From an uncultured Verrucomicrobiaceae bacterium (GTDB lineage Bacteria; Pseudomonadota; Gammaproteobacteria; Pseudomonadales; CAMLJR01): a stretch of 64,000 bases of DNA. The DNA lies in assembly GCA_964386045.1 (NCBI GenBank), contig CAYLRA010000011.1, positions 7,311-71,310 of the forward strand, written 5' to 3'. Each line of letters starts with the position of its first letter. The first letter of the stretch is position 1. This document shows positions 5,703 to 51,076 of this stretch, one piece after another. The position numbers and the translations under genes are program-made. Under the pieces are notes generated by a model. The model saw nothing but the letters and a program-made list of their open reading frames with translations. It searched no databases and was not told where the DNA came from.

Positions 5703-5819
5703 GCGGGGTACCTGTAACGCGGGAACAAATTCATTAGAAGTGGGGCAGCGCCTTCCGCCTCGGTGACGAACGTGTCATCTCGGTAACCGGCGCGTGGCGA
5801 CGGCGCGGTAGTTATAGCA

Positions 5820-6794
5820 CTAGCTCGCCGGCAGCGCCTGCAGCAGCTGGCCGTTTCCGGTGCGCAGGTGGTCGGTGTCGCCGACCACGGCCAGCAGCTC
5901 GCAGAAACCGTCGGTCAGGGCGACGGCGTCGACCACCTGGCCGGCGCCGCGGCCATTGGCATCCTGCAGCTCGCTGCCGGCTGCCGGCGCCGGGGCGTCG
6001 CAGCGGGCGCAAATCAGATGGCGCTTGACCTGACCCCGATAGTGGGCGCGGGCGACGATCTCCTGGCCGGTGTAGCACCCCTTGCTGAAGCTGACCGCCC
6101 CCAGTTCGGGATAGTTGACCATCTGCGGGATGAACAGCTCGCTGGTTGCGGCGCACAGTTCGGCGACGCCGGCGCGGATCTGCAGCCAGCGCCAGCAGTC
6201 GCCGCTGGCGGCGACCAGTCTCGCCGCCAGCGCGGCCTGCCACAGACCGGTGGCCGCCTCGACCGGCAGCCAGCACTCGAAGCGCGCTCCTGCCTCATCC
6301 AGCTGAATCAGTTGGGCCTCGCCGACAATACGAGCTGCCTGCCGGCTGTCGGGACAGGTGCCGAAATGCGTTCGCAGCAGGGCAGCGGCGCCAGCGCCGG
6401 CCAGACCAAAGGCGACATGGCCGTCGAGCGCCGACAGCTTCGCCTTGCGGTAGAGCGGCAGGTATTTGCCGAACTGGCGACCGGTCAGCTCGGCGAGGTC
6501 GGCGCGCAGTCGCAGCCAGAAGCCGTCATCGCCGCGTCGGGCCAGTTCGAATGTCGTCACCATGCGTCCCTTGGGGGTGCAGTGGGCGGCGAGGCTGGCG
6601 CGCTCCAGCGTGAGAGATTCGACGTCGCAGGTCAGCTGCCCCTGCAGGAAACGGGCGCTGTCGCCACCCTCCAGCTGTAACAGTGAGCAGTGGTCGAGCG
6701 GGGCGATCAGCGACTGCTGCAACCGCTCGGGCGCCGGCTCGGCGAGGGCGGTACGGTCGACGACCTGGAAAAAAGCTGACCACGGGGTTGGCAT
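5820..6794 (-). CDS. ygfZ: tRNA-modifying folate-binding protein YgfZ
   Basis: LSLLQLEGGDSARFLQGQLTCDV..., C-terminal KGCYTGQEIVARAHYRG motif, 324 aa from the ATG at 6794. The track ORF 5820..7442 is an upstream extension. Divergent from sdhE as in enterobacteria. Confidence 0.88.
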   Translation of the reverse strand: MPTPWSAFFQVVDRTALAEPAPERLQQSLIAPLDHCSLLQLEGGDSARFLQGQLTCDVESLTLERASLAAHCTPKGRMVTTFELARRGDDGFWLRLRADLAELTGRQFGKYLPLYRKAKLSALDGHVAFGLAGAGAAALLRTHFGTCPDSRQAARIVGEAQLIQLDEAGARFECWLPVEAATGLWQAALAARLVAASGDCWRWLQIRAGVAELCAATSELFIPQMVNYPELGAVSFSKGCYTGQEIVARAHYRGQVKRHLICARCDAPAPAAGSELQDANGRGAGQVVDAVALTDGFCELLAVVGDTDHLRTGNGQLLQALPAS

Positions 6795-6896
6795 TGCGGT
6801 GTACTCGCTGGGGTAATTGGCGGATCGGGGCCGGTATAATGCCGGCTCTTTTTTCCCCGACCAAGCGCCGGTATCGGCGTGCGAGCGAGCGACCGA

Positions 6897-34188: not shown

Positions 34189-34438
34189 CGAAATGATGGT
34201 GCGAAATCCGGGGTGTGGTTTCGTTCGTCGGCTGGATTTTCGATAAGTGTTCGCAGCGTCAGGCGAGATGGATAGCCATGTCCATCGCCGTGCGTTTGCA
34301 TGACTGTTGCCGAAATTTTCTGACCTGCGAATCCCTGCCTCGACCCGGCCACATGGAGTGGCATGGGTGTTCGTGCCATTGCCTTTTTTCGATTTGTCGC
34401 CGGGTGGGCGCGGTCGGTAGTTGCAGGGGTTTTGGCAA

Positions 34439-36550: not shown

Positions 36551-36564
36551 GCGGTCGTGTCGTG

Positions 36565-38124
36565 ATGAAACTGCGCTGGAAACGCTGGCTCTACCTGTCG
36601 CACCGCTGGTTTGGCATAGCGCTGTGCCTGCTGTTCGTGGCGTGGTTCGTCAGCGGCATCGTCATGATGTACGTCGGCTTTCCGCAACTCGATCGTGACG
36701 AGCGGCTGACCGGGTTGCCGGCGCTCGACTTCTCGTCGGCGCGGCTGTCGCCGGTCGAGGCGGTGGCGAGATTGCGCGATGCCGATTTCTCTGTCGTCGG
36801 CGCGCCCGAACGCAACCTGCCGCGCGACGGCGTCGGCGACACGGTGTCGCCGACGGTGGTGCGGCTCGGCATGTTGCAGGGGCGCCCGGTCTATCACCTG
36901 CATCTCGGCGGCGCTATTCAGCCGCGCACGGTATTTGCCGACGATGGCGAACTGTTGCAGCGGGTGACGTTGGCGATGGCGCTGCAGACGGCGGTCGATT
37001 TCGCGCAGCGGCAGCGCGGTATGGCCTTCGCCGACGCGCGTCATGCGGAGCTGCTGCAGACCGATCAGTGGACGCTGTCGGCGGCGATGAACATTCACCG
37101 CCCGCTGCATCGCGTCGAACTCGGCGATGCGCATGGCAGTGAGCTCTACGTCTCGTCGACCACCGGCGAAGTGGTGCGCGACACCGCGCGCAGCGAGCGC
37201 TTGCTGAACTATGTCGGTGCGGTGACACACTGGATCTATCCGACGGTGATTCGGCGTCATCCGGAGCTATGGGCCTGGCTGGTCGATATTCTGGCTGCCG
37301 CTGGCGTGGTGCTCGCGCTGACCGGATTGTGGATCGGAGTGCTGCGCTGGAAGCGTCGGCCGAAGCCGGGAAAGCCGGCGGTTCCCTATCGTGGGCTGAT
37401 GCGGTGGCACTACTTCAGCGGGATTGTGTTTGGTGGCTTCGCATTGACCTGGGTTTTCAGCGGCTGGTTGTCGATGAATCCCGGGGGGTTGAATCCATCT
37501 CGGGCGGTCAGTGCACAAGAACGATCGGCGCTCAGTGGTGTACCGACGATATTGCGGGTAGCTGATTTCGTGCAACCGGTGCCGGTGTTCGATGGGCAGA
37601 CGGTTGAGGCGGAGTTGCTGCATGTCGATGGGGTCGCGGCTTATCTGATGTCGCGGCGCGATGGTTCTCGCCAGCTGGTTTCGGCGAATGATGGCAGTCT
37701 ATTCACTGTCGACCTGCCGAGACTGCGAGCATTGCTGCCGGCGCTGATGCCTCAGTCGACACTGAATCAGGTGCAGCTGCTGACAGGTTATGACAACTAC
37801 TATTACAGCCGTCATCCAGAGCGTGGTGACAAGCCACTTCCCACACTGCGTGCGATGTTTGCCGATGACGCCGCAACTTGGTTTCACGTTGATGTGGCGA
37901 CCGGACAGTTACTGGATCGCAGTACTGCCACCAATCGTCTCTATCGTTGGCTCTACAACGGCCTTCACTCGTGGGATATCTATTGGTTATGGCAGCGGCG
38001 GCCGCTGTGGGATATTGCCCTGATCAGCTTTTCGTTGGGAGGGGTATTGTTGTCGGGGCTTGGCGTTGTGGTTGGGTGGCGGCGACTTGGCGATGGACGC
38101 AGGCGGGGTCGTGCCAGAGTCTGA
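36565..38124 (+). CDS. PepSY-associated TM-helix protein (PiuB/iron-regulated membrane protein family)
   Basis: KRWLYLSHRWFGIALCLLFVAWFVSGIVMMY is the typical N-terminus. Further TM helices follow, including LYNGLHSWDI... 519 aa. Starts 15 nt after the receptor stop. Confidence 0.8.
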   Translation: MKLRWKRWLYLSHRWFGIALCLLFVAWFVSGIVMMYVGFPQLDRDERLTGLPALDFSSARLSPVEAVARLRDADFSVVGAPERNLPRDGVGDTVSPTVVRLGMLQGRPVYHLHLGGAIQPRTVFADDGELLQRVTLAMALQTAVDFAQRQRGMAFADARHAELLQTDQWTLSAAMNIHRPLHRVELGDAHGSELYVSSTTGEVVRDTARSERLLNYVGAVTHWIYPTVIRRHPELWAWLVDILAAAGVVLALTGLWIGVLRWKRRPKPGKPAVPYRGLMRWHYFSGIVFGGFALTWVFSGWLSMNPGGLNPSRAVSAQERSALSGVPTILRVADFVQPVPVFDGQTVEAELLHVDGVAAYLMSRRDGSRQLVSANDGSLFTVDLPRLRALLPALMPQSTLNQVQLLTGYDNYYYSRHPERGDKPLPTLRAMFADDAATWFHVDVATGQLLDRSTATNRLYRWLYNGLHSWDIYWLWQRRPLWDIALISFSLGGVLLSGLGVVVGWRRLGDGRRRGRARV

Positions 38125-38180
38125 TCCGAAACGTTAAATCAGCCCGGCACCTGCTGGCCGGACAGTTATCTGCAGGCGAT

Positions 38181-38888
38181 TCAGCCAGCGCTGTGGATAC
38201 CGCGGCGCACCGCCTGTTGCAGCTGGCTCAGCGTGACGCTGCGGGCGATCGACTGGCTTTTGCGAATGTGGTCGATCATCGCCTTGCGCGCACGCCGTAC
38301 ATTGCCTGCCTGAATCAGCAGGCAGAGTTCGTGGTGCTCTTCGTAGGTTTCCACCACCGCCTGCCGGTCGGGAAAGCCGAGCCGCCGCAGGATGCGGATG
38401 TGGTGGTTGATGTCGCGCAGGTAGTCGGCCAGCACCGGGTTGCCGCTGCCGACCGCGATGCTGATGTGGAAGGCCTCCTCCAGCGTCTTGATCTCATCCA
38501 TGTTGACGCTTTTCCTGACGCGCGCCGGGTTCCATAACTCGGTCAGTGCGTCCAGCGCTTCGCGATTCATCTGCCTGCAGGCGCGTTCGATCGCCTCGGC
38601 CTCCAGGCAGACGCGCACGTCGTAAAACTGCGTGATTCGCTCGATGTCGACCGGCCGCACGAAGCAGCCCTGCTTCGGCAGGATGGTGATATGCCCCTCG
38701 ACCTCCAGCCGCTGCAACGCCGCGCGCACCGGTGTGCGGCTGACGTTGAATTCGGTCGCCAGCTCCGATTCGGTGACGCGGGTGCCGGGGTAGAGTTCGA
38801 ATTCGAGAATCTTGCGGCGCAGCTGTTCGTAGATCTTCTGCGAGGAGAACTGGCTTTTCTGCAATGCATTTTCTCCAGAGATAGCCAC
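38181..38888 (-). CDS. GntR-family (FadR/FCD subfamily) transcriptional regulator
   Basis: Winged HTH ESELATEFNVSRTPVRAALQRLEVEGHI, then an all-helical FCD-like C-terminal domain. 235 aa. Confidence 0.88.
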   Translation of the reverse strand: MAISGENALQKSQFSSQKIYEQLRRKILEFELYPGTRVTESELATEFNVSRTPVRAALQRLEVEGHITILPKQGCFVRPVDIERITQFYDVRVCLEAEAIERACRQMNREALDALTELWNPARVRKSVNMDEIKTLEEAFHISIAVGSGNPVLADYLRDINHHIRILRRLGFPDRQAVVETYEEHHELCLLIQAGNVRRARKAMIDHIRKSQSIARSVTLSQLQQAVRRGIHSAG

Positions 38889-39097
38889 ATCTGAATTTAC
38901 CTTGGCACGTTAGTGCAGGCTCCGGGTCGTGTAAAGCGCCTCACGGTTGTGGTGCGCACTGCGCTGTTTGCGGGCGCAATGACATCTGCCCCCTTTAATA
39001 TCGTTCCTCTCGCTTCCCGGCACTTTTCCCAACCTGTTGTTTTTCAATCCCGTCGCCGAGCTCGGCATGTCTCGGCATGGATGATGCTTTATACCCA

Positions 39098-39113
39098 TCG
39101 TTGTATACAACGA
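39098..39113. promoter_or_regulatory. perfect 16-bp palindrome TCGTTGTATACAACGA, candidate GntR operator
   Basis: Its core TTGTATACAA fits the GntR/FadR-type (t)nGT-n-AC(a) palindrome rule. It lies in the divergent region between the GntR gene and the tsx-like gene. Confidence 0.6.
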
Positions 39114-39192
39114 CAAATACAAAGTGGTGCTCGCGGCGATGAGTGCGCGGCGACATCGAATGATGGCGACAGCTTCAAACAAGGGGATGGCG

Positions 39193-39993
39193 ATGGAGGC
39201 ACGGGAGAAAGGGCTGCTTCAGCAGCGTTGTGGCGGCGCGGTCAAGGGCGGCGTAATCAACATGTTCGGCCTGCCACTGATGGCGTTAATGCTGCCGATG
39301 GCGGCACAGGCCGGTAGTGCGCAGTGGAGTTCGACCAATATCCAGTATTTGCATGGCACGAACTATGAATTGGGTGACGACACGCGCTCGATCGTCACCC
39401 TTGAGCACGCCAACGGCTGGAAGTATGGCGACAATTTCTTCTTCGTTGACATTACCAATCCGGATCGCGACGGGGAGAACACCGGCACCGAGTTCTACGG
39501 CGAGATCTCGCCGCGACTCAGTTTCAGCAAGATCAGCGGTCGCGACCTGTCGTTCGGCATCGTGCAGGATTTCCTGATCACGACCACGGTCGAGATCGGC
39601 GACGCCGGCTCCGGCTTCCACAACTATCTGTACGGTCTGGCGGTCGACCTGAAACTGCCGGGCTTCGCCTTCTTCCAGGTCAACTGGTACGTGCGCAACG
39701 AGGTGACGGCGGGCACCGATCTCGGCCAGCAGGTGACGCTGGTGTGGCTGGTGCCGTTTTCGATCGGCCCGGTCGACTTCGCCTTCGAAGGCTTTCTCGA
39801 TTACGCCTATGGCAACGATCCGTCCGAGGACAACCTGCTGACGGCGCCGCGCCTGCTGGTCGATGTCGGCAAGTTCTTCGGTGCGCCGGGTGCGCTGCAG
39901 GCCGGTGTCGAATACCAGATCTGGCGCAACAAGTTCGGTATAGACGGTATTGACGAAGATGTGGCGCAACTGATGGTGAAGTGGGTCTGGTAG
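39193..39993 (+). CDS. Tsx/OmpK-family outer-membrane nucleoside-type channel
   Basis: FYGEISPRLSFSKISGRDLSFGIVQDF aligns by eye with E. coli Tsx [27 protein letters not shown]. Signal peptide ...LMALMLPMAAQA, aromatic C-terminus ...VKWVW. The start could be 39187, 39193 or 39262. Confidence 0.75.
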   Translation: MEAREKGLLQQRCGGAVKGGVINMFGLPLMALMLPMAAQAGSAQWSSTNIQYLHGTNYELGDDTRSIVTLEHANGWKYGDNFFFVDITNPDRDGENTGTEFYGEISPRLSFSKISGRDLSFGIVQDFLITTTVEIGDAGSGFHNYLYGLAVDLKLPGFAFFQVNWYVRNEVTAGTDLGQQVTLVWLVPFSIGPVDFAFEGFLDYAYGNDPSEDNLLTAPRLLVDVGKFFGAPGALQAGVEYQIWRNKFGIDGIDEDVAQLMVKWVW

Positions 39994-40023
39994 CTGCCGG
40001 TCAGTTTTTTCGAGGAGGAGAAC

Positions 40024-40695
40024 ATGGCTGCGATCACGCTGGCGGCGGAACCCGCCGCAATCGATCTCGATCTGGCGCGCACTGCGCTGCTGATCATCGA
40101 CATGCAGCGCGACTTCGTGTTGCCCGGCGGTTTTGGCGAAACGCTGGGAAACGATGTGTCGTTGTTGCGCAGTGCGATCGGGCCATGTGCGCAGGTGCTG
40201 GCTGCGGCGCGCGCGCTGAGGATGGCGGTGATCCATACCCGCGAGGGCCACCGTCCCGATCTCGGCGATGCGCCGCCGGCGAAACTGCAGCGAGGCGTGC
40301 CGAGTAAACGTATCGGCGATTTCGGTCCGATGGGGCGCATCCTGATTCGCGGTGAGCCGGGGCACGACATCATCCCCGAACTCTATCCGCTGGCGGACGA
40401 GCCGGTGGTCGACAAGCCGGGCAAGGGCTCCTTTTACGGCACCGATCTCGAACTGCTGCTGATCAATCGCCGTATCGAAAACCTGCTGGTCTGCGGCGTC
40501 ACCACCGAGGTGTGCGTGCACACGACGGTGCGCGAAGCCAACGATCGCGGCTACCGCTGCGTGGTACTTGGTGATTGCTGCGCCTCCTACTTCCCGGAGT
40601 TTCACCGTGTCGCGCTGCAGATGGTGTCGGCGCAGGGCGGCATTTTTGGCTGGGTATCGAGTTCGGAAAAGTTTCTCGCGGCAGTTGAATCCTGA
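40024..40695 (+). CDS. cysteine hydrolase (isochorismatase-like amidohydrolase) paralog 1
   Basis: D-K-C triad context: [33 protein letters not shown]. 223 aa. Confidence 0.82.
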   Translation: MAAITLAAEPAAIDLDLARTALLIIDMQRDFVLPGGFGETLGNDVSLLRSAIGPCAQVLAAARALRMAVIHTREGHRPDLGDAPPAKLQRGVPSKRIGDFGPMGRILIRGEPGHDIIPELYPLADEPVVDKPGKGSFYGTDLELLLINRRIENLLVCGVTTEVCVHTTVREANDRGYRCVVLGDCCASYFPEFHRVALQMVSAQGGIFGWVSSSEKFLAAVES

Positions 40696-40718
40696 ATCGT
40701 TTGAGAGGGGATCGGATC

Positions 40719-42302
40719 ATGAGTGGATCGGCACTGTTCAAGCCGCGGCTGTGGACGCCCGGCGACTGGAATGCCCTGTTCGGGTTTGGCACCAACATCC
40801 TGGTCAACCTGCTGGTGTTGACCGGTCTGCTGTTGTACGTGGTGAAGATGCCGGAGGAGATCGTGTTCGGTCGCATCCTGCCGGCGACCGGATTGATGCT
40901 GTTCCTCAGTACGGTCTACTACGCGTGGCTGGCCTATCGACTGGCGCAGAAGACCGGCCGCAGCGATGTCTGCGCGCTGCCGTCTGGTGTCAGCGTGCCG
41001 CATATGTTTGTCGTCACCTTCGTCATCATGTTGCCGATCTCCTTGTCGACCGGTGACCCGATTCGCGGTTGGGAAGCGGGGCTGACCTGGGTGTTCATCC
41101 AGAGTTTCGTGTTGATGATCGGCGCCTTCATTGCCCCCTGCATTCGCAGGATCACGCCGCGCGCCGCGCTGCTCGGCACGCTGGCCGGTGTCTCCGTCGC
41201 GTTCATCTCGCTGCGGCCGGCGCTGGAGATGTACATGACGCCGGTGATCGGCGTGGTCTGCTTCGCCATCATCCTGCTGAGCTGGTTTGGTGGCGTGCGT
41301 TATTTCAAGGGAGTTCCCGCCGGGCTGGTCGCCATCGCCGTCGGCACGCTGATCGCGTGGGGCAGCACGGCGATGGGGATTGGCATTGGTGGCATGAGCC
41401 TGGAGAAGGTGGCACAGGCGGTAACGAGTTTCGGATTCTCGGTGCCGGTGCCTGCGTTTGGTCACGTCTTCTCCGGCTTTGAGTTCCTCGGCATCATCCT
41501 CGTCACCGCGATTCCGTTCGGCATCTACGATCTGGTCGAGGCGATGGACAATGTCGAGAGTGCTGCCGTCGCCGGCGACAGTTTTCCGACCACGCGCGTG
41601 CTCTCTGCCGACGGTGTTGTCAGCCTGATCGGTTGCCTGATGGGCAATCCCTTCATCAATGCCGTCTATATCGGTCATCCGGGCTGGAAGGCGATGGGCG
41701 GGCGCATCGGTTATTCGGCGGCGACCGGCATCATCGTGTTGTTGTTGGCCTGGTTCGGTGTCATCGCGCTGATGAGTGCGTTGATTCCGGTGGTCGCCAT
41801 CTCGCCCATCCTGCTCTACATCGGCATGTTGATCGGCGCGCAGGCGTTCCAGGAGACGCCGAAGAGTCATGCGCCGGCGATCATTCTCGCGCTGATGCCG
41901 CACCTCGCTGCGTGGGGAAAACTGCAGATAGACAACGCACTGGGCGCGGCAGGCACCAGCGCGGCTGCGGTTGGCTTCGACAAGCTCGGTCAGACCGGTG
42001 TGTTGTATGAAGGGTTGGCGGTGTTGGGTGGCGGCGCAATTCTCGGCGGTCTGGTGCTGGGGGCGATCGCCGCGTTTGTCATCGAGCGGCAGTTGTGGCG
42101 TGCAGCGGCATTCGCGCTGGCCGGTGCCGCACTGACCTTCTTCGGTTTCATGCACGGCGAGCAGGTCGGTATTGCCGAGTCACCGATGGTGGCGCTGGCC
42201 TATCTGCTGGTGGCAGCGACACTGGCTGCCTGCGCGAAGTTCGTCAATGTCGACAGCCTGGCACCACTGCCGGTGCATGGCGAAGCCGAAGCGACGGCAT
42301 AG
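40719..42302 (+). CDS. divergent AzgA/NCS2-like nucleobase-type permease (527 aa)
   Basis: About 13 predicted hydrophobic segments. The region VESAAVAGD...[40 protein letters not shown] is collinear with the AzgA/AdeP core (...SVTGSFIGTSSVTAYIESSSGVSVGGRTGLTA). ATG at 40719. Confidence 0.7.
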
Positions 42303-42313
42303 GGAGAGCGGAG

Positions 42314-42994
42314 ATGACGCGTTATCTCGACAGCACACCCTACGCCTGGCCATTCGACGGCAATCTGCAGCCGGACAACACCGCGCTGATCATCATCGAC
42401 ATGCAGACCGATTTCTGCGGCGAGGGTGGTTACGTCGACAGCATGGGTTACGACATCGCACTGACGCGCGCGCCGATCGAACCGATCGGCCGCGTGTTGC
42501 AGCGATTGCGCGAACTCGGCTTCTTCATCATCCACACCCGCGAGGGGCACCGCCCCGATCTCGCCGACCTGCCGGCCAACAAACGCTGGCGCTCGCGCCA
42601 GATCGGCGCCGGCATCGGCGATGCCGGACCGTGCGGGCGCATTCTGGTCAGGGGCGAGCCGGGCTGGGAGATCATCCCGGAGCTGGCTCCGCTGCCGGGC
42701 GAGGTGATCATCGACAAGCCGGGCAAGGGCTCGTTCTGTGCCACCGACCTCGATCTGATCCTGCGCACGCAGGGCATTCGCAACCTGATCCTGACCGGCA
42801 TCACCACCGATGTCTGCGTGCATACGACGATGCGCGAGGGCAACGATCGCGGCTTTGAGTGTGTGCTGCTGGCCGATTGCTGCGCCGCCACCGATCAGGC
42901 GAACCACGCGGCGGCGCTACATATGATTCACATGCAGGGTGGCGTGTTCGGCGCGGTATCAAACTCGACGGCGTTGCTGTCGACACTGGAGTAA
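42314..42994 (+). CDS. cysteine hydrolase (isochorismatase-like amidohydrolase) paralog 2
   Basis: [33 protein letters not shown]. It shares the long block [10 protein letters not shown]...[17 protein letters not shown] with paralog 1. 226 aa. Confidence 0.82.
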
Positions 42995-43001
42995 CCGACT
43001 C

Positions 43002-43352
43002 ATGGCGAGCGAGCTGCTGTTATGGCGCGACCTGTTGCGCCTCGATCCGGATGATCCGCATCTGGCATGGCAACCCTTTCGCGATGGCGTCGAGATGGTG
43101 CCGCTGCACAGTGTCGAGGGGCGCGGCGTCTGTTGTGCGTTGCTGCGGTATGCCGCCGGCGCATCGGTGCCGAGCCATACCCACACCGGGCTGGAGTATC
43201 TGCTGGTTCTGCGCGGCGATCAGCGCGACGATCGCGCCAGCTACACCGCCGGCGCCCTGCTGATCAACGAGCCGGGCTCGGTGCATCAGGTCAGCAGCGA
43301 TGGCGGTTGCATCGTACTGGCGATCTGGGAGGGGCCGGTGCGCTTCGATTGA
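43002..43352 (+). CDS. cupin-domain protein (ChrR-like cupin)
   Basis: YAAGASVPSHTHTGLEYLLVLRG...EPGSVHQV has the two-motif cupin metal-site pattern. 116 aa. Confidence 0.7.
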   Translation: MASELLLWRDLLRLDPDDPHLAWQPFRDGVEMVPLHSVEGRGVCCALLRYAAGASVPSHTHTGLEYLLVLRGDQRDDRASYTAGALLINEPGSVHQVSSDGGCIVLAIWEGPVRFD

Positions 43353-43397
43353 GTCGGCAGCGTCACCTGTCCGGCGTTCGCGCGGTGTGACGCGGCT

Positions 43398-44864
43398 TCA
43401 GTAGACATCCCGACGATAGCGACCCTGTTCGGTCAGCTGTTCCACGCGCTCCTCGCCCAGCAGTTCGTTCAGCACCGTGTGCACCGCTGGCGCCATGCCC
43501 TGCAGGCTGCCGCAGACATAGATCGCAGCGCCATCGTCGACCCATTGCTGCAGGGCTTTGCCGGCTTCGCGCAGGCGTTGCTGCACGTAGGCAGAATCTT
43601 CGTCGCGAGAGAAGGCGAGATCGACGCGGGTGAGGTGACCGCTTTGTTGCCACTGCTCGATTTCTTCGCGAAAGAAGTAGTCGTGCGCCGCGCTGCGCTC
43701 GCCGAACAGCAACCAGTTGTTGTGCTGGCCGCGCTGTTCGCGCGCCTGCAGCAGTGCGCGCAGGCCGGCGATGCCGGTGCCGTTGCCAATCAGGATCAGC
43801 GGGCAGTCGCTCGCCGGGGGATGGAAGTTGGCGTTGCTGCGCACGCGCAGGTCGACTTCGTCGCCGATGGCTGCGATGGCGGTCAGATAACCGGAGCCGA
43901 GGCCGAGGCTGCCGTCGGGGTGCCGATGCTGTCGTACTAACAGTTCAACTCTACCGCTCGCCCTCAGCGATGCGATGGAGTATTCGCGGTGCGGCAGCGG
44001 TGCGAGTGTATCCGTCGTCCTGCTTTCCCGACGCGGGCCGATCTCGGCGATGTCGCCGGCTTCCCAGGCGGCGTCGCCATCGAGCGGTTCCAGTGCGATG
44101 AAAAAGGCGGGCGCGCCGGCGCTGCCGGAATTTACGCAGCGGCGCGTGACGAGTCGCCAGCGGCCATAACCCGGGGCCTGCCAATCGGCCAGATCGGTGC
44201 GACCGCCGAGCAGGCCGAGATGGTGTTGCCAGTGACGCAGCGCGCCGCCGTCGCCGTTGTCGACTTCTACGGGGTCGAACAGCGGTTCGGCGCCCTGTGT
44301 CCGCAGCCAGTGGCCGAGACTTCGACCGAAACCGCAGTAGTCGCGGTAGCTGCTGTCGCCGAGTGACAGCAGACCGAACTGCAGCCGGTGCAGATCGGGT
44401 GCCTGCGTCATGACACGCCGCGCGAATGCGGCGGCCTGGTCGGGCGGGTCGCCCTCACCGTAGGTGCTGACGATGAACAGCGCGCGCTGGCAGTCGCGCA
44501 GCGTGTCGCCATCCAGCGCCGCCAGCGGCAGTAATCGCACCGGCAGTTGTGCCTGTTGCAACGCTTCGGCACTTTGCCAGGCGAGGCGTTCGGCGGTGCC
44601 GGTCTGGCTGGCGTAAGCGATCAACAGTGGCGCGGTATCGCCGCGGTCGCCTTTCATCAATGCCTGCACCGCATCGCGTTCACGCTGTTGTCGATGTCGG
44701 TGGCGCAGCCAGATCACACCGCAAAAGGCGAGATAGCCGGCGGTGGCGGTCGCCGCGCCGGTGTGGCGCAGGGCGGTATCGCTCAGAGCGAGCGCCGCCG
44801 GGCTGGTTGCAAGCAGCGGCAGCGCCAGCAGGCGCGATGCAAATTCGAGGAGTGCGGAGGGCAT
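43398..44864 (-). CDS. membrane-anchored flavodoxin/FAD/NAD(P)H oxidoreductase (CysJ/PiuB C-terminal-like)
   Basis: Two N-terminal hydrophobic segments. FMN motif LIAYASQTGTAE, FAD motif HREYSIAS, NAD(P)H motif LIGNGTGIAGLRA, C-terminal ...RYRRDVY. 488 aa. Confidence 0.85.
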   Translation of the reverse strand: MPSALLEFASRLLALPLLATSPAALALSDTALRHTGAATATAGYLAFCGVIWLRHRHRQQRERDAVQALMKGDRGDTAPLLIAYASQTGTAERLAWQSAEALQQAQLPVRLLPLAALDGDTLRDCQRALFIVSTYGEGDPPDQAAAFARRVMTQAPDLHRLQFGLLSLGDSSYRDYCGFGRSLGHWLRTQGAEPLFDPVEVDNGDGGALRHWQHHLGLLGGRTDLADWQAPGYGRWRLVTRRCVNSGSAGAPAFFIALEPLDGDAAWEAGDIAEIGPRRESRTTDTLAPLPHREYSIASLRASGRVELLVRQHRHPDGSLGLGSGYLTAIAAIGDEVDLRVRSNANFHPPASDCPLILIGNGTGIAGLRALLQAREQRGQHNNWLLFGERSAAHDYFFREEIEQWQQSGHLTRVDLAFSRDEDSAYVQQRLREAGKALQQWVDDGAAIYVCGSLQGMAPAVHTVLNELLGEERVEQLTEQGRYRRDVY

Positions 44865-44909
44865 GGCGGAGGTGAGTGTGCGCCGCCGGTCTCCCGGCGG
44901 CGCAGCCCG

Positions 44910-45731
44910 TTACTGCGGCAGCACTTCAAACGTCGCGACGTAGCTGCCGCGCCGCTGGGTCGCCGGCTTCTGCGCCTTGTCGTCCTGGTACTGCGCTTCC
45001 AGGAAATACTGGCCGGCGGTCGGCCAGGTGATGGCGAAACGCCCCTGCCTGTCGGCGACCGCCTCGATCGCCTGCTGGCCGTCGCGGTAGCGCATCCCGG
45101 CCGGCAGCACGGTGACCTTGGCGCCGACGGCGGGCTGGCCGTCGATCAGCAGCGCGAAGGTGGCGGCCTCGCCGGCGAACAGGTCGTTGGGGTGGGTGAC
45201 CGGTGCCAGTTCGAGCCCCTGGCCGGTCGGCTTCAGCACGGCGTCGCTCGGGTTGCCGGCGGTGACGAAGGTCTCCAGCCGCCGCGACGACTGCGTGACG
45301 CGCAGGTTATCGGCCTTCTTCGGCACGGCCTTGTCGAAGCCCTCCTGGGTGAACGGCGTGCCGCGCTGCGGCCACATCTTGCGCTGGCCATTCTCTTCCC
45401 ACATGGCGTTCAGGCCGCTGCTGGCGGAGAAGACCTTGTAGGTGCCTTTCTGCGGCAGTTGCAGGTCGAAGGTGCTGCGGTGCTTGCCGGAGGCCGCGTT
45501 CTGCAACGGCACCTCCTTGCCGTCCGGCCCCACCGCCTTGACGCCTTCGAGGCGCATGGCGTGGTGGTCGGGGTGGAAGATGTCGTTGGAGATGGCGGCG
45601 TCGAAGGTGACCCACGGCTCGTCGCTGGAGAGCACGGTGGCGGCCGGCACGATCCAGGCGCGGTGCGCGTGGGCGGCGAACGGCAGGGTGAGCGCCAGTG
45701 CGATGGCGGCGGGTTTGACGAAACGTTTCAT
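44910..45731 (-). CDS. DUF4198-family periplasmic protein
   Basis: Signal peptide MKRFVKPAAIALALTLPFAAHA, then HRAWIVPAATVLSSDEPWVTFDAAISNDIF, typical of DUF4198. 273 aa. The rest of track ORF 44910..46388 is an upstream artefact. Confidence 0.75.
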   Translation of the reverse strand: MKRFVKPAAIALALTLPFAAHAHRAWIVPAATVLSSDEPWVTFDAAISNDIFHPDHHAMRLEGVKAVGPDGKEVPLQNAASGKHRSTFDLQLPQKGTYKVFSASSGLNAMWEENGQRKMWPQRGTPFTQEGFDKAVPKKADNLRVTQSSRRLETFVTAGNPSDAVLKPTGQGLELAPVTHPNDLFAGEAATFALLIDGQPAVGAKVTVLPAGMRYRDGQQAIEAVADRQGRFAITWPTAGQYFLEAQYQDDKAQKPATQRRGSYVATFEVLPQ

Positions 45732-45784
45732 GGACGGACTCCTGGTGTGGGGTGTCGTGTGTGGCCGGCGCGAATCGCGGCGGC

Positions 45785-46315
45785 TCAGGGTTTCAGTTCG
45801 ACGGTGATGGCGCCGAGCTCGCTGCTGCCTTTGCCCTCCAGCTTCTGCGGTGCCTTCGGCGGCCACTGGAACGGGATCTCGACCAGCTCGCGACCACCGA
45901 CCTCGCGCGCCGCCTCGACCAGCAATCGGTAGCTGCCGGCGGGCAGGTCGCCGAGCGGTGCCTTGCCACTGCTGAACGAGACGGTGTGGCTGCCCGGCGC
46001 GCGGGTGGCGCCGCTGACGCCGTCGATCGGCAGGTCGAGTTCGCGGCCGCTGCGGCGCCACCACTGGCGCATGTCCTTCAGCCACTTCTCGCCCTCGTCG
46101 TTCTTCATCTTCACGTCGTACCAGATGGCGAGGTTGGCGGCGACGCTGCGGTCCTCGCGCTCGATCCAGATCGCGGTGTAGGGGCGGTGGTACTCCGCCA
46201 CCTGCAGGCGCGGAATCTCCACCGTCACCGAAAGCTCGGTGGCCTGCGCCGGCAGCGCCAGTGACAGGCCGAGCAGCGGTGCGGCAAGGGCGGTGAAGCG
46301 GAAGGTACTGGTCAT
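45785..46315 (-). CDS. DUF2271-family periplasmic protein with an SGAT flavinylation-type motif
   Basis: Signal peptide MTSTFRFTALAAPLLGLSLALPAQA. AEYHRPYTAIWIE matches the DUF2271 hallmark as I remember it. DGVSGAT is at residues 98-104 (nt 46004-46024). 176 aa. Confidence 0.75.
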   Translation of the reverse strand: MTSTFRFTALAAPLLGLSLALPAQATELSVTVEIPRLQVAEYHRPYTAIWIEREDRSVAANLAIWYDVKMKNDEGEKWLKDMRQWWRRSGRELDLPIDGVSGATRAPGSHTVSFSSGKAPLGDLPAGSYRLLVEAAREVGGRELVEIPFQWPPKAPQKLEGKGSSELGAITVELKP

Positions 46316-46341
46316 GGTGTTCCCCCGGTCGTGTGAAAAGG

Positions 46342-46983
46342 TCAGGCGTGAATGAAAAGCAGTGCCAGCAGCAGCGGCGCCAGCACACCGAGGCCGACCA
46401 CCGGCCAGGTGGCGGGGCGGTGGCCGCCGTGCAGCTGCAGCAGCACCAGCCCGGTCAGGCAGAACACCAGGCAGGCACCGGCGAAGATGTCGAGGAACCA
46501 GCTCCAGGCGGTGCCGGTGTTGCGCCCCTTGTGCAGGTCGTTGAGGTAGGAAACCCAGCCACGATCGGTGCGCTCGAACAGCACCTCGCCGCTGTCGCGG
46601 TCGATGCTGAGCCAGGCATCGCCGCCGGGGCGCGGCAGCGGCAGGTAGATCTCGCCGTCGGACCACTCCGCCACCCGGCTGCCGACGTCGACCGCCAGCG
46701 TCTCGCCAATCCAGTCGCGCAGTGCGGCGGGCAGCGCGGCCTCGCCGCTGTCGGCTTCGGCGCGCAGCGCGTCGAGCAGCGCGGCCGGCAGCGTGCCCTC
46801 GCGGCTCTCGATACGCGGCTTGGCCTCGATCTGCGCGGCATGGTTCAGCGTGATGCCGGTGATGGCGAACAGGATCATGCCGACCAGACAGAGGGCCGAG
46901 CTGATCCAGTGCCACTGGTGCAGCGTTTTCAGCCAGTAACCGCGGCGGGCGGCATCGGAGGGAGCGTGAGAGGTATCGGGCAT
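46342..46983 (-). CDS. short PepSY-associated TM-helix protein
   Basis: RGYWLKTLHQWHWISSALCLVGMILFAITGITLNH..., a central periplasmic segment, then LNDLHKGRNTG..WSWFLDIFAGACLVFCLTGLVL. 213 aa from the ATG at 46983. Confidence 0.75.
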   Translation of the reverse strand: MPDTSHAPSDAARRGYWLKTLHQWHWISSALCLVGMILFAITGITLNHAAQIEAKPRIESREGTLPAALLDALRAEADSGEAALPAALRDWIGETLAVDVGSRVAEWSDGEIYLPLPRPGGDAWLSIDRDSGEVLFERTDRGWVSYLNDLHKGRNTGTAWSWFLDIFAGACLVFCLTGLVLLQLHGGHRPATWPVVGLGVLAPLLLALLFIHA

Positions 46984-47093
46984 GGAAGTCGGGCGGGAAG
47001 ATGTCAGGTGCGCTACTCCATCACGAGTGAGAATGAGTCGCAATAAGTGATTGGTGCTTTCCCACTTTTTCCATAGTTTGGTGACTCCGAAGG

Positions 47094-47121
47094 TCGACGG
47101 GCAGCCATGCGGCTGCCCGTC
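47094..47121 (-). other. perfect 12-bp stem-loop just downstream of the receptor stop codon (intra-operon hairpin)
   Basis: CGACGGGCAGCC-atgc-GGCTGCCCGTCG. No U-tract follows on the coding (minus) strand. Confidence 0.6.
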
Positions 47122-47130
47122 GATCGATCG

Positions 47131-49563
47131 TCAGAACTGCACGTTGACGCTCATCCAGAAGCTGCGGGCCGCATCCTTGTTGTTGTAGTCGTCGAAGTAG
47201 AGAATCTCGTTGGTGCTGCTGCCATAGACACCATCACCATCCAGATCGCGGAACTCGGTCCGGTAGGTGGTGAAGTCCTTGTCCAGCAGGTTGTTGACCC
47301 GGCCGTTGATCTTGATGTTATCGGTCAGCTGGTAGCCGATGCCGAGGTGGAGCACCTCGTAGTCCTTGTAGTACAGCGCCTCGTCGGTCAGCGTGTGCTG
47401 GCCGCGATAGCGCCTGGAGCGGGCCTCCATGGTCAGGAACAGGTTCAACGGCTCCAGCACCTGCCAGTCCAGCGTCACGTTGGCCATGTGCTTGGCGCTG
47501 TTGCCGAGCGGCTGGCCCTTGTTGGCACCGCTCTTCTGCTCGCTGTCGGTGTAGGTGTAGTTGGCGCGCAATGCCCAGTTGTCGAGGAACTGCCAGCGAC
47601 CGGCCAGCTCCACGCCGTCGATCACCACTTCGTCGATATTGACCGTCCGGTTGCTCGACGAGTAGCCGAGGTCGGCGAACTCCCCACTGCTGGCGCAGGC
47701 AAGGGCCGTACCGCCGCCGCAGGGTTGCGAGGCGATCTTGTCCTCGAACTCGTTGCGGAACACGGTGGCGTTGAAGTTGTGGCCGTTCGGGTGCTGCCAG
47801 TAGACGGCTGCCTCGGTGGTGACGCTGGTTTCCGGCTCCAGGTCGGGGTTGCCGAACATCGGCGAGGTGCCCTGGCTGCCGAAGCCGGTGATGCCGTCGT
47901 AGAGCTGGGTGGTCTTCGGCGTCTTGTAGCCGGTGCTGACACCGCCCTTGACCGTCCACTGCGCGTTGACGGTGTAGACGCCATACAGGCGCGGGCTCAG
48001 CTGTTCGCCGAACACCTCGTGGTCGTCATGGCGCAGGCCGAAGGTGATGGCCAGCGGCTCGATGACATACCAGGTGTCCTCGGCGAACAGCGACCACATG
48101 TTGTGTTCCTGTACCTGACCGGGGGTGCCCTCTTCCATGCCGAACACGCCGTCTTCCAGTTCGCCCCGGATCACCTGGGTGCCGACCACCAGAATGTGCT
48201 GTCCTGCCAGTTCGAACGGCATGTCCAGCTTGGCGTCCAGCGTGTACTGGTTGCTCTCCATGGTGCGCTTGGGGCGTGGCAGGAAGGTCGACTCGGCCAG
48301 TGCCTTGCGCTCGTCGGTGGTCATGCCGGCATAGGCGCCGGTGCCGTCGAACATGGCCAGCAGGTGTTCGCGCTCGGCCACGGTGAAGGGCAGGGTACGG
48401 CCTTCGTTGTTGGTCTCGACATAGGCCAGCGAGACGAAGCTGTTGCCGAAATCCCAGGTACCGTCGTGGGTCAGCGCCCAGCTGTCGCGGGTGAACTCCT
48501 GGGTGGGGGCGTAGCCCGCGCGCGGGTTGGCGCGGCGCGACCAGGTGCCGCCATTGCCGGTGCAGGCGCCGGCATTGTTGCCGGCGGCGCCCAGACAGAA
48601 GTTGCCCGCTGTCCAGATGGCGTCGATGTTGTCCACCGTGCCGACCGGGTACTCCAGCACGCCGGCGTCGTTGGTCTTGATCTTGTTGTCGTACTCCTGT
48701 TTCGACGTATCCCAGTCCAGCGTCACGGTCTGGTTCCCGGTCGGTGTCCAGACCAGGCTGATACCGCCGGCGACATTGGTGTTGTCGACGGTCTTGCCGC
48801 CGCCGCCGAAACTCATGGGGCGGATATGCGCGGCGCCGGCCGGATCGGTGATGGGGGCGTAGGTCGGGTTGGAGGCGTCGCTCTCGTAGCGGCTGCCGCG
48901 CAGCGTCAGGTTCAGCAGGCCGGGTACCAGCGGGCCGGAGAGGAAGGCGTCCAGCGTGTTGTCGTCACCGAAGGCGTCGTCCGACTGCGCGGTGTAGCCG
49001 GCGGTGATCGAGGCGCTCCACTTCTCTGCATTCTTCTTGGTGATGATGTTGATGACACCGCCCATGGCATCGGCGCCATACAGCGTCGAGGCGGGGCCGC
49101 GGATCACTTCGATGCGCTCGATCGCATCCAGCGGCGGGATGTGGTTGAACTGGTTGCCGCCAAAGCTGTTCGGATAGATGTCGCCGTGGTTGCTCTGGCG
49201 TTTGCCGTCCACCAGGATCAGCGTGTAGTCGGAGCCCATGCCACGCAGGGAGATGGTGCCCTGGCCGGTCTTGTCGCGGGTTTCGCCGACATCCACCCCC
49301 TCCAGGTCGCGCACCGCGTCCAGCAGCGTCGTGTAGGGGCGCTTGCTCAGCTCCTTCTGTTCGATGACCGAGATACTGGCCGGTGCGTCGACCAGCTTCT
49401 GCTCGAAACCGGCGGCGCTGACCACCTTGACCGGTTCCAGCGTGACCGTCGCCGCGTCGTCCGCCGCCGCCGGCGCGGCGAGCAGGATCTGGGAGAGCAG
49501 GGCGGCGGATGTGGCGGCGACCAGCGGGCGCACGCGGTGTGCCTGGGCAAAGATAAGAGTCAT
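47131..49563 (-). CDS. TonB-dependent receptor (CirA/catecholate-type architecture, no N-terminal signalling domain)
   Basis: Signal peptide, plug region DAPASISVIEQKELSKRPYTTLLDAVRDLEGVDV...ISLRGMGSDYTLILVDGKR, IEVIRGPASTLYGADAMGGVINIITKK, C-terminal ...SFWMSVNVQF. 810 aa. RBS GAGGAAG. Confidence 0.92.
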   Translation of the reverse strand: MTLIFAQAHRVRPLVAATSAALLSQILLAAPAAADDAATVTLEPVKVVSAAGFEQKLVDAPASISVIEQKELSKRPYTTLLDAVRDLEGVDVGETRDKTGQGTISLRGMGSDYTLILVDGKRQSNHGDIYPNSFGGNQFNHIPPLDAIERIEVIRGPASTLYGADAMGGVINIITKKNAEKWSASITAGYTAQSDDAFGDDNTLDAFLSGPLVPGLLNLTLRGSRYESDASNPTYAPITDPAGAAHIRPMSFGGGGKTVDNTNVAGGISLVWTPTGNQTVTLDWDTSKQEYDNKIKTNDAGVLEYPVGTVDNIDAIWTAGNFCLGAAGNNAGACTGNGGTWSRRANPRAGYAPTQEFTRDSWALTHDGTWDFGNSFVSLAYVETNNEGRTLPFTVAEREHLLAMFDGTGAYAGMTTDERKALAESTFLPRPKRTMESNQYTLDAKLDMPFELAGQHILVVGTQVIRGELEDGVFGMEEGTPGQVQEHNMWSLFAEDTWYVIEPLAITFGLRHDDHEVFGEQLSPRLYGVYTVNAQWTVKGGVSTGYKTPKTTQLYDGITGFGSQGTSPMFGNPDLEPETSVTTEAAVYWQHPNGHNFNATVFRNEFEDKIASQPCGGGTALACASSGEFADLGYSSSNRTVNIDEVVIDGVELAGRWQFLDNWALRANYTYTDSEQKSGANKGQPLGNSAKHMANVTLDWQVLEPLNLFLTMEARSRRYRGQHTLTDEALYYKDYEVLHLGIGYQLTDNIKINGRVNNLLDKDFTTYRTEFRDLDGDGVYGSSTNEILYFDDYNNKDAARSFWMSVNVQF

Positions 49564-49664
49564 TACTACTTCCTCTTGATAATAGTTCTCGTTTGTAACA
49601 GAGAGGAAGACGAACCACCCGAAGAAACCCGTAACGCGCCGGGAAAAAAGTGGTCGCCCCGGGT

Positions 49665-50240
49665 TCAGCGCTCCAGCCGTGCGCGCAGATGATCCAGGGC
49701 GCGCGCCGTCTGTTTTTCCACTGTGCTCAGCGAGACGCCCAGTTCGCGCGCGATCTGCGGGTGGGTTACGCCGTGCAGGCGTGAGGACTGAAAGATGCGC
49801 TGCGTCTGCGGCGGCAGCTCCGCCAGCGCCCGCGCCAGCAGCTCCAGCTCCTGCCGTGCAGCGACCACGCTGTCGAGCTCGGGGCTTTCGCCGGTCACTT
49901 CGTACAGGTAGGCGAGGCTTTCATCCAGCACCGAGCGCCTCCCGTGAATGCGCTGGTGGTCGATGGCCAGATTGCGGGCGATGCGGAAGATGAACGCGCG
50001 CAGGTCGTCGATCGGCTGGCCCGCGTGCGCGACCAGGCGCAGGTAGGTCTCCTGGACGAGATCCGCGGCGGTCTGGGTGCAGTGCAGCTGCCCGCGCAGG
50101 AACTGGCGCACCTCCAGCGCGTGGGTGCGGAAGGCGTTGTTCAACTGTTCGGCGCTCAAGGAGGAGGTGTTGGCCACGGCAGAGGGTTCGGCAACGGGTG
50201 TTCGACAACCTGGGAGGTCTGGAAGGACCTTTAGATACAC
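49665..50240 (-). CDS. ECF-type sigma-70 family factor (iron-starvation type); start codon uncertain
   Basis: Region 2 DLVQETYLRLV...FIFRIARNLAIDHQR and region 4 RIFQSSRLHGVTHPQIARELGVSLSTVEKQ. The ATG at 50240 lies only 6 nt from the Fur box, so a downstream start such as GTG at 50177 is possible. Confidence 0.82.
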   Translation of the reverse strand: MYLKVLPDLPGCRTPVAEPSAVANTSSLSAEQLNNAFRTHALEVRQFLRGQLHCTQTAADLVQETYLRLVAHAGQPIDDLRAFIFRIARNLAIDHQRIHGRRSVLDESLAYLYEVTGESPELDSVVAARQELELLARALAELPPQTQRIFQSSRLHGVTHPQIARELGVSLSTVEKQTARALDHLRARLER

Positions 50241-50245
50241 GAAGC

Positions 50246-50264
50246 ACTAATGATAATCAATATT
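50246..50264. promoter_or_regulatory. Fur box
   Basis: ACTAATGATAATCAATATT matches the 19-mer consensus GATAATGATAATCATTATC at 15 of 19 positions. It sits in the only AT-rich patch nearby, immediately upstream of the ECF sigma gene. Confidence 0.75.
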
Positions 50265-50310
50265 ATTATTAAAAGTGGCTGCCAAATTGGGTGTGGGCGG
50301 TGGACAGGGG

Positions 50311-50338
50311 CAAAAAAAAGCCGCCTTTCGGCGGCGTC
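50311..50338 (-). terminator. rho-independent terminator of the 50417-50698 gene
   Basis: On the minus strand, GCCGCC-gaaa-GGCGGC is followed by TTTTTTTT. Confidence 0.8.
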
Positions 50339-50416
50339 ACAGTCTCATCATCGATGAGCTGATCCGAACAACAACGTCGAGAGTGCCATGGGTGGAAATC
50401 TTGAAAGCCGCGAAAG

Positions 50417-50698
50417 TTAGAAACGCTTGTTGAAACCAATTCCGGCGCCGACGACGCCCCACACCAGCGAGCGCCCTTCAGTCCGGTTGCCGCTGTCGCC
50501 GAAACTGGCGGTCGGCGTGTCGCCGCGTTGCTCGCCAAAGCTGCGCTGCGCAACCTGCAGTGGTTCGCGGGTGCGGTTTGGCAGAATGACGATCGATTGC
50601 AGCGAAATGATGTTGCGTTCGCGGGGGCGCTCGGGTTCGCCGAGGCAGAAGTCGCTGCCGGTCAGCAGCACAGTGGCGATCAGCATCTGTTTCAGCAT
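50417..50698 (-). CDS. hypothetical small exported protein (93 aa)
   Basis: Hydrophobic N-terminus MLKQMLIATVLLTGSDFC, C-terminal ...GAGIGFNKRF, its own terminator. No family recognised. Confidence 0.45.
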   Translation of the reverse strand: MLKQMLIATVLLTGSDFCLGEPERPRERNIISLQSIVILPNRTREPLQVAQRSFGEQRGDTPTASFGDSGNRTEGRSLVWGVVGAGIGFNKRF

Positions 50699-51076
50699 CG
50701 CGGAGCCCCCCCGTGCCGACTGGCGGCGACAACTTCGGTTGAAAAACTTGTCTGGTTGAAAAAACCTGGTTGACTCGACTATAGCAACGCCCTGTGCCAG
50801 CGCCGTGACAGTTGCTCAGGTTGTGATTGTCCCCACAGCCGGCGCGGACCTGCCCCGTTTGGCGAGTGTCGGGTTGTGGGTGAAAAGTCGTCAGGCTGCA
50901 TCGACTTACGGTGGGTTTTTTGCGCTCCGTCCGCTGCGCCAAGGATTCGTCGGCGGATACTTCGGGGTTCGACTGCTGCCGGTTTTGCCAGTGATGTTGG
51001 CCCGTTTCGCGCTTTGGGGGGCAGCGGCGCGGTGGATACACTCGGCCTCTCTTCCAATCAGCCAGGGTTGCTGCCG

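Follow-up and report, generated by a model that had tools for sequence, protein, structure and literature searches.

The 64,000-nucleotide stretch analysed here, referred to below as the window (contig CAYLRA010000011.1 of assembly GCA_964386045.1, positions 7,311 to 71,310), encodes an exported DUF2271 protein with a D-G-V-S-G-A-T motif of the type on which ApbE-type transferases place flavin mononucleotide (FMN), and no apbE gene. The explanation that we consider highly probable as a whole is that this is an ApbE-flavinylated DUF2271 protein in a PepSY-like iron-starvation operon, with the transferase supplied in trans. The flavinylation reading is correct but concerns a family property that is already published, and the operon is one more, unremarkable representative of a system already known. 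The tension between a textbook motif and a missing transferase is much smaller than a first-pass annotation of the window had implied, because flavinylation of the DUF2271 Thr by ApbE was demonstrated in 2021 and this type of gene cluster has been described.

The DUF2271 protein and its motif

45785 to 46315, minus strand: DUF2271 protein (Pfam PF10029), 176 amino acids (aa), putative periplasmic flavinylation substrate and electron carrier
46241 to 46315, minus strand: Sec signal peptide, residues 1-25, predicted cleavage between AQA and TE, from inspection
46004 to 46024, minus strand: DGVSGAT, ApbE flavinylation motif, with the T104 codon acc (46006-46004) encoding the predicted FMN acceptor

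The open reading frame (ORF) runs from an ATG at 46315-46313 to a stop codon at 45787-45785, and its product matches the DUF2271 profile over its full length (E = 2.8e-50; score 170 bits, the cut-off being 27.3; positions 2-135 of the 136 in the profile). Direct reading of the minus strand from 46024 to 46004 gives the codons gac ggc gtc agc ggc gcc acc, hence D-G-V-S-G-A-T at residues 98-104, as the first-pass annotation had described. Its assignment of these residues to the ApbE type agrees with the general substrate recognition motif D-x-x-[S/T]-G-A-[S/T] (PMC12052999). Across all six-frame window ORFs of at least 50 aa (97,325 residues), the pattern D..[ST]GA[ST] has a single occurrence, the DGVSGAT site, which is more than a chance match. 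The N-terminus, MTSTFRFTALAAPLLGLSLALPAQA followed by TE, has on inspection the n-h-c layout of a Sec signal peptide of the signal peptidase I type, with A-Q-A at positions -3 to -1. A25, at position -1, is at least 95% conserved among homologues, and the signal peptide noted earlier stands.

An AlphaFold2 model of the protein (predicted local distance difference test score 82.8) shows a β-sandwich with one helix, in which T104 lies in the loop that joins strand 100-102 to strand 108-115. No solved DUF2271 structure was found by sequence or fold search (best Foldseek E 0.011, TM-score about 0.3). The PDB fold matches, generic β-sandwich and C2-domain proteins with a TM-score of about 0.3, were rejected as structural neighbours. 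NCBIfam holds no curated model covering the DUF2271, PF16357 or DUF4198 proteins of this locus.

The experimental precedent comes from Méheust et al. 2021 (eLife, PMC8238504), who described DUF2271 as an ApbE substrate with a conserved [S/T]GA[S/T] motif. The DUF2271 protein of Amantichitinum ursilacus (WP_053936890.1) was flavinylated when co-expressed with its cognate ApbE, giving a UV-visible band upon sodium dodecyl sulfate-polyacrylamide gel electrophoresis, and a Thr-to-Ala change abolished flavinylation (PMC8238504). Compared by family and motif, the sequences not being directly aligned, the window protein and that of A. ursilacus share the Pfam family, a [S/T]GA[S/T] site with a Thr acceptor and the form of a small, soluble, exported domain. 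In A. ursilacus, apbE lies inside the gene cluster and flavinylation is experimental, whereas the window has no apbE in its 64 kb and flavinylation is predicted only.

Conservation of the acceptor threonine

A homologue search yielded 5911 DUF2271 homologues at E ≤ 1e-5, and motif counts were made on the best 120. A species-level scan (one genome per species) gave 80 related loci, in which DUF2271 has 56-71% identity to that of the window. T104, D98 and G99 are invariant in both sets, i.e. in 200 close homologues, and in the 80 genomic relatives the residues conserved to at least 95% include R105 as well as D98, G99 and T104. The best 120 carry SGAT in 90 cases, TGAT in 10 and Gly/Ala variants (SSAT, TSAT, SAAT, SSPT) in 19. 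To reach more distant members, 1.84 billion cluster representatives were searched exhaustively with HMMER, which returned 893 clusters with DUF2271 matches. The distant set comprises 109 representatives of 50%-identity clusters whose alignment spans the motif site, 38-70% identical. Position 104 is Thr in 102 of the 109 and Ser in 2 (T or S in 104), position 98 is Asp in 100, position 101 is Ser or Thr in 101, position 102 is Gly in 78 and Ser in 21, and position 103 is Ala in 87 and Pro in 19. The conservation of the SGAT Thr, which the first-pass annotation had left to an alignment of homologues, is borne out at both distances, and on these alignments the predicted acceptor is the most conserved residue of the motif.

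About 16-28% of DUF2271 proteins have Ser or Ala for the motif Gly and/or Pro for the motif Ala (SSAT, TSAT, TSPT, SSPT, SAAT) and keep the Thr (e.g. proteins P0018, P0025 and P0086 and loci L012, L017, L033 and L043). Mutational work cited in a review on ApbE indicates that changing the motif Gly to Ala lowers flavinylation (PMC12052999). Noncanonical motifs are somewhat commoner in operons with their own apbE (15 of 64 versus 2 of 13). The difference is small and not significant, and a confinement to such operons, which was considered, is not claimed.

Related loci with and without apbE

The statement that no ApbE-like protein is encoded in the 64 kb is confirmed. An Escherichia coli Ftp/ApbE query (L001) gave no match over the window by phmmer and tblastn (best E about 1-2), and neither did a hidden Markov model of 64 ApbEs run with --max against the six-frame window ORFs of at least 50 aa (best E = 0.42, 5 bits). 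Pfam scans of about 65 window ORFs detected no ApbE (PF02424), FMN_bind, Nqr or Rnf family. What these scans did return is the normal content of a gammaproteobacterial chromosome, including nadB, rseC, lepA, lepB, rnc, era, recO, relA, mazG, adk and tsaB as well as uppP, trpS, queA, tgt, ffh, rpsP, rimM, trmD, rplS, xerD and dsbC.

All 80 related loci carry the genes for the PepSY protein, DUF2271 and DUF4198 in that order. In 64 of them apbE stands directly after the DUF4198 gene, usually with the reductase gene next. Thirteen have no apbE within ±10 kb and have the reductase gene directly after that for DUF4198, like the window, and the remaining three end at contig edges. In the window the reductase gene starts 45 bp after the DUF4198 gene, and an apbE remnant between the two was ruled out, this gap containing no gene remnant. 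This intergenic space is taken up by a GC-rich hairpin at 44870-44905 (gcgccgccgg-gaga-ccggcggcgc) with no T-run.

The 13 apbE-less loci belong to one Cellvibrionaceae metagenome-assembled genome (MAG), three Stutzerimonas and five Pseudomonas genomes, and one each of Serpens, Thiopseudomonas, Azorhizophilus and Oryzomicrobium. A gene for a TonB-dependent receptor (TBDR) lies just upstream in 9 of these 13 versus 7 of the 64 apbE-bearing loci. In a neighbour-joining tree of three proteins joined end to end, 12 of the 13 group with the window in one clade, which also includes one apbE-bearing Moraxellaceae locus; Oryzomicrobium stands apart. The acceptor Thr, D98 and G99 are present in all 13, and the canonical SGAT in 11. 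The closest relative, a MAG contig from GCA_964515735.1 (L082) with a 96% identical DUF2271 protein, has the same apbE-less operon, and its 17.9-kb locus contains no apbE. Judging from these sequences, the apbE-less layout is a clade-level feature of a Pseudomonadales-type sublineage, mostly TBDR-linked and with the motif conserved, and the operon of the window lacks apbE because it belongs to this sublineage, from which the operon-borne gene is absent. The occurrence of this layout at clade level with the motif kept is the sole, modest addition to published biology.

The absence of apbE from both the 64 kb and the locus of the closest relative, together with the tolerance of about a quarter of the family for changes of the motif Gly or Ala, would also suit a relic. 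The operon apbE would then have been lost and the protein would carry no covalent flavin, being left with non-covalent flavin, a flavin-free function or decay. We regard this as improbable. No apbE-less locus, in any of the several genera concerned, has lost the acceptor Thr, D98 or G99. The operon has no damaged gene, its cofactor motifs are conserved, and relatives of the same layout encode ApbE at an nqr locus (see below). In addition, the ratio of nonsynonymous to synonymous substitution rates between the window and L082 is 0.26 for DUF2271 (0.36 for the PepSY protein and 0.24 for DUF4198).

Probable source of the transferase

The sequence of Pseudomonas stutzeri ApbE (PDB 5MGY), recovered from alignments, was used as ApbE query and matched flavin adenine dinucleotide (FAD):protein FMN transferases named Stutzerimonas nitrititolerans and S. 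azotifigens. The DUF2271 operons of both species (L031 and L074, respectively) are without apbE. The S. nitrititolerans-named enzyme (P0288) is encoded in an nqrA-B-C-D-E-F-apbE-nqrM locus (L086). Because this ApbE sits in an nqr locus while the DUF2271 operon of the species is apbE-less, the most likely route of DUF2271 maturation is flavinylation in trans by a housekeeping, nqr-linked ApbE. The proposal of the first-pass annotation that the modifying enzyme would be encoded elsewhere is favoured by this locus and by the apbE-less, motif-keeping clade. P. stutzeri ApbE flavinylates NosR, and the nosRZDFYL cluster is without apbE; ApbE also accepts heterologous proteins once they carry a tag of 7 residues (PMC12052999). 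The window organism, known from a metagenome-derived contig, is Spongiibacteraceae-like by its LepA, which reaches 87% with Spongiibacteraceae MAGs and 83-84% with Spongiibacter, Zhongshania and Dasania. The literature on Spongiibacter or Zhongshania yielded no usable record of nqr or ApbE.

Another transferase, or autocatalysis, might put flavin or a different group on T104 in the apbE-less clade, which we hold to be extremely improbable. Its only argument is the lack of a local apbE, to which the several window ORFs without a Pfam match may be added. No further conserved gene is found in the apbE-less operons, whose order is the same minus apbE, the gap before the reductase gene of the window is 45 bp, and the motif remains of the canonical ApbE type. 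We know of no enzyme other than ApbE that attaches flavin to a site of the T104 type. It is likewise very unlikely that T104 is matured or used without any ApbE throughout the apbE-less clade, be it through another transferase or as a flavin-free carrier; if true, the 'ApbE motif' would owe its conservation to a role that does not involve ApbE. The favoured reading is that an iron-starvation reductase depends on a respiratory, nqr-linked ApbE for its maturation.

Operon architecture and partner proteins

The DUF2271 gene is the fourth of an operon on the minus strand, in the order extracytoplasmic function (ECF) sigma factor, TBDR, PepSY_TM_like_2, DUF2271, DUF4198 and flavodoxin/NAD_binding_1 reductase. 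The features other than DUF2271, with the genes assigned by Pfam, are as follows.

50246 to 50270, strand not assigned: Fur box, two overlapping 19-mers, each 15/19 against GATAATGATAATCATTATC, directly upstream of the sigma gene
49665 to 50240, minus strand: ECF (FecI-like) sigma factor (Sigma70_r2/r4_2/ECF), probable start GTG at 50177
47131 to 49563, minus strand: TonB-dependent outer-membrane receptor, 810 aa, Plug and barrel, without STN domain
46342 to 47043, minus strand: PepSY_TM_like_2 inner-membrane protein (PF16357, E = 1.1e-86; PF03929), likely start ATG at 46983, 213 aa
44910 to 45731, minus strand: DUF4198 exported protein (PF10670, E = 6.1e-56), 273 aa, putative periplasmic metal-binding partner
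43398 to 44864, minus strand: flavodoxin and FNR-type NAD(P)H reductase (Flavodoxin_1, NAD_binding_1), 488 aa, putative cytoplasmic electron donor

'PepSY-like' systems have been defined by a PF03929/PF16357 protein encoded within five genes of a gene for an exported DUF2271, FMN-bind, DUF3570 or ApbE protein, and iron reduction and assimilation were proposed as their function (PMC8238504). In that survey, DUF2271 occurs in 2833 PepSY-like clusters, DUF4198 in 1500, a NAD-binding domain in 1077 and a TonB receptor in 231, and ApbE is present 'frequently'. Because of this last wording, ApbE is not a defining component. The window falls within the definition, its PF16357 protein being encoded next to DUF2271 on the upstream side. 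It also has the optional companions DUF4198, flavodoxin/NAD_binding_1 reductase and TBDR; ApbE is absent.

The PepSY_TM_like_2 protein is a putative transmembrane electron conduit. A hydropathy scan shows three hydrophobic segments, and H45, H68, H171 and H232, located at membrane boundaries, reach at least 95% conservation across 81 sequences. These four His residues are compatible with heme ligation as in FoxB, a PepSY-type siderophore reductase that binds two hemes via His pairs (PDB 7ABW). In the DUF4198 protein, H23, H56, D44, D89, E153 and E174 are at least 95% conserved. His23 is also the predicted first mature residue (cleavage between AHA and HRAW), with this degree of conservation in the 81 sequences, which suggests an N-terminal metal ligand. 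The reductase has CysJ-like similarity in NCBIfam, below cut-off. At least 95% conserved in it are the flavodoxin motifs, R293-x-Y295-S296, a Gly-rich NAD(P)H-binding motif at 360-367 (G360, G362, G364, A366 and G367) and the C-terminal Y488. Read by eye, its N-terminal region is a possible membrane anchor.

Iron regulation

No other site in the window matches the Fur box as well as the two 19-mers at 50246-50270. Four Fur-type matches with at most 6 mismatches were observed in the window versus 0.75 expected from mononucleotide shuffles. An intrinsic terminator at 50335-50320 precedes the Fur box and insulates the operon. The sigma factor has FecI-like similarity in NCBIfam and aligns with the 168-aa sigma factor of L082. 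The nearest NCBIfam models of the receptor are of the catecholate type (CirA/IreA/CfrA), every match being below cut-off. Homologous operons elsewhere respond to iron: the Caulobacter CCNA_03155-03159 operon is under Fur control and required in the presence of ethylenediaminetetraacetic acid (PMC11870441), and Alteromonas DUF2271/DUF4198 pairs beside Fe-responsive TonB-dependent transporters are induced by iron limitation (PMC7190382). We infer that the unit at 43398-50270 (6.9 kb) is a ferric-reduction module of the PepSY-like type, controlled by Fur and the ECF sigma factor and using flavinylated DUF2271 as its carrier.

The cell-surface signalling set of the FecI/FecR/FecA type is incomplete in this unit, where Pfam finds the sigma factor but no FecR gene and no STN domain, and the unit is not to be filed as a complete cell-surface-signalling system. 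L082 has the full set of ECF sigma factor, FecR and STN-bearing TBDR (893 aa) at 4874-6856. In the window, at 49452-50270, the homologous sigma factor and the receptor signal peptide are kept and fecR and STN are gone, about 1.47 kb of L082 being swapped for about 0.2 kb to give the 810-aa receptor. Residues 39-810 of the latter have 85.5% identity to residues 123-893 of the L082 receptor. Because fecR and the STN domain are missing, the ECF sigma factor of the window is apparently an orphan with only Fur control. Upstream of it, the distance between the nitroreductase start and the sigma start (window 50162-51072) is about 890 bp, compared with about 160 bp in L082. The extra DNA contains a 93-aa ORF on the minus strand (50417-50698) with a signal-peptide-like N-terminus and no Pfam match, as well as the strong terminator at 50335-50320 and the strong Fur box. 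The Fur-like sites of L082 are weaker (13/19).

A flavinylated DUF2271 protein could also serve a system that reduces a substrate other than iron, e.g. an oxidant, part of a siderophore, or another metal such as Cu(II), for which DUF4198 would be the handling protein. Zcp, a DUF4198 protein of Neisseria gonorrhoeae, binds Zn, and Co, Ni and Cu in vitro (PMC12663993), some PepSY_TM proteins are tied to copper and oxidase function (PMC13038864), and the substrate of the window receptor is unassigned in NCBIfam. The strong upstream Fur box, the FecI-like sigma factor and the catecholate-type receptor argue against such a function, as do the Fur regulation of homologous operons, their requirement under iron chelation and the fact that FoxB and VciB are ferric reductases. 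A non-iron function is in our view unlikely.

Proposed mechanism

Under the ferric-reduction reading, an ApbE-type FAD:protein FMN transferase would join FMN to Thr104 by a phosphoester bond after Sec export. Electrons from cytoplasmic NAD(P)H would enter the possibly membrane-anchored reductase at its FAD, move on to its FMN, and cross the membrane via the PepSY-like protein, probably over bis-His hemes. The covalent FMN on periplasmic DUF2271 would receive them and reduce Fe(III) that the TBDR has let in, whether as a chelate or bound to DUF4198, and the Fe(II) released would be taken up.

Several points weigh against this scheme. Our assignments of a heme conduit, of a direction to the electron flow and of a terminal acceptor are inferred. 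Covalent flavinylation of the window protein is predicted, its precedent being another member of the family, and the presence of apbE in the window organism is deduced from relatives. Zcp, the one DUF4198 protein that has been characterised, binds Zn rather than Fe, and a substrate assignment for the receptor would have to rely on NCBIfam matches that are all below cut-off. No inner-membrane Fe(II) transporter is encoded in the operon. Finally, a Kyte-Doolittle window hydropathy scan of the reductase found no hydrophobic segment above threshold, which leaves the membrane anchor a tentative reading.

Comparison with known systems

The PepSY-like clusters of Caulobacter (CCNA_03155-03159), Shewanella oneidensis and Alteromonas (MASE_17430/17435) share with the window the PepSY-like protein, DUF2271, DUF4198, an NAD(P)H flavin reductase and Fur/iron regulation; an adjacent TBDR gene is found in a minority of clusters. 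The window differs from them in its split form, with the reductase separate rather than fused to PepSY, in having no apbE, and in having its own ECF sigma factor with no FecR anti-sigma factor and no receptor STN domain. In some apbE-less Pseudomonadales loci, at L059 (2770-5247), L076 (2-2200) and L081 (4349-6877), a second reductase homologue of about 800 aa lies nearby on the opposite strand and may, judged from its length, be the PepSY-fused form.

The FMN_bind proteins NqrC, RnfG and NosR resemble the window protein in facing the periplasm and carrying an ApbE-flavinylated Thr in D-x-x-[S/T]-G-A-[S/T]. Their FMN_bind fold is unrelated to the DUF2271 β-sandwich, and they belong to respiratory or N2O-reductase complexes, whereas DUF2271 of the window belongs to an iron-uptake operon. 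FoxB of P. aeruginosa and VciB of V. cholerae share the PepSY-associated transmembrane family, conserved His pairs and iron-regulated TonB receptor partners with the window. They work without DUF2271 or flavinylation components, and the window protein is of the shorter PF16357 subtype with three transmembrane segments. A separate iron-uptake pair, without DUF2271 or DUF4198, is present at 34421-38121 of the window and consists of a TonB-dependent siderophore receptor (TIGR01783, above cut-off) and, following it, a long, FoxB/PiuB-like PepSY_TM protein.

Zcp (PDB 9MHI-9MHO) resides in the periplasm, binds metal and is induced under metal starvation (PMC12663993). It is monocistronic and Zur-regulated and binds Zn via three His, whereas the DUF4198 protein of the window is encoded in a Fur-type redox operon. 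The two match weakly and in the C-terminal part only (E = 8e-5). The PDB copy labels the 9MHI-9MHO chains 'Phosphoribosylglycinamide formyltransferase' where the depositing paper has Zcp, apparently a mislabelling of the record.

A block of about 5.3 kb (38087-43393) that L082 lacks separates the reductase gene from the PepSY_TM/TBDR pair. It contains genes for a GntR/FCD regulator, a Tsx-like porin, two isochorismatase-family proteins and a ChrR-type cupin, and a 533-aa ORF (40701-42302) that is by eye a membrane protein and has no Pfam match. The block has the look of a small island, inserted here, for catabolism or transport.

Implications

The importance of these results lies mainly in annotation, as the whole unit at 43398-50270 can be named. 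About one in six of the sampled operons is without apbE, nearly all of them in one clade, and these must use a transferase encoded elsewhere, probably the nqr-linked ApbE. This predicts a dependency of an iron-acquisition system on a maturation factor of a respiratory complex, e.g. in Stutzerimonas. A missing neighbouring apbE is consequently no ground to discount predicted flavinylation substrates.

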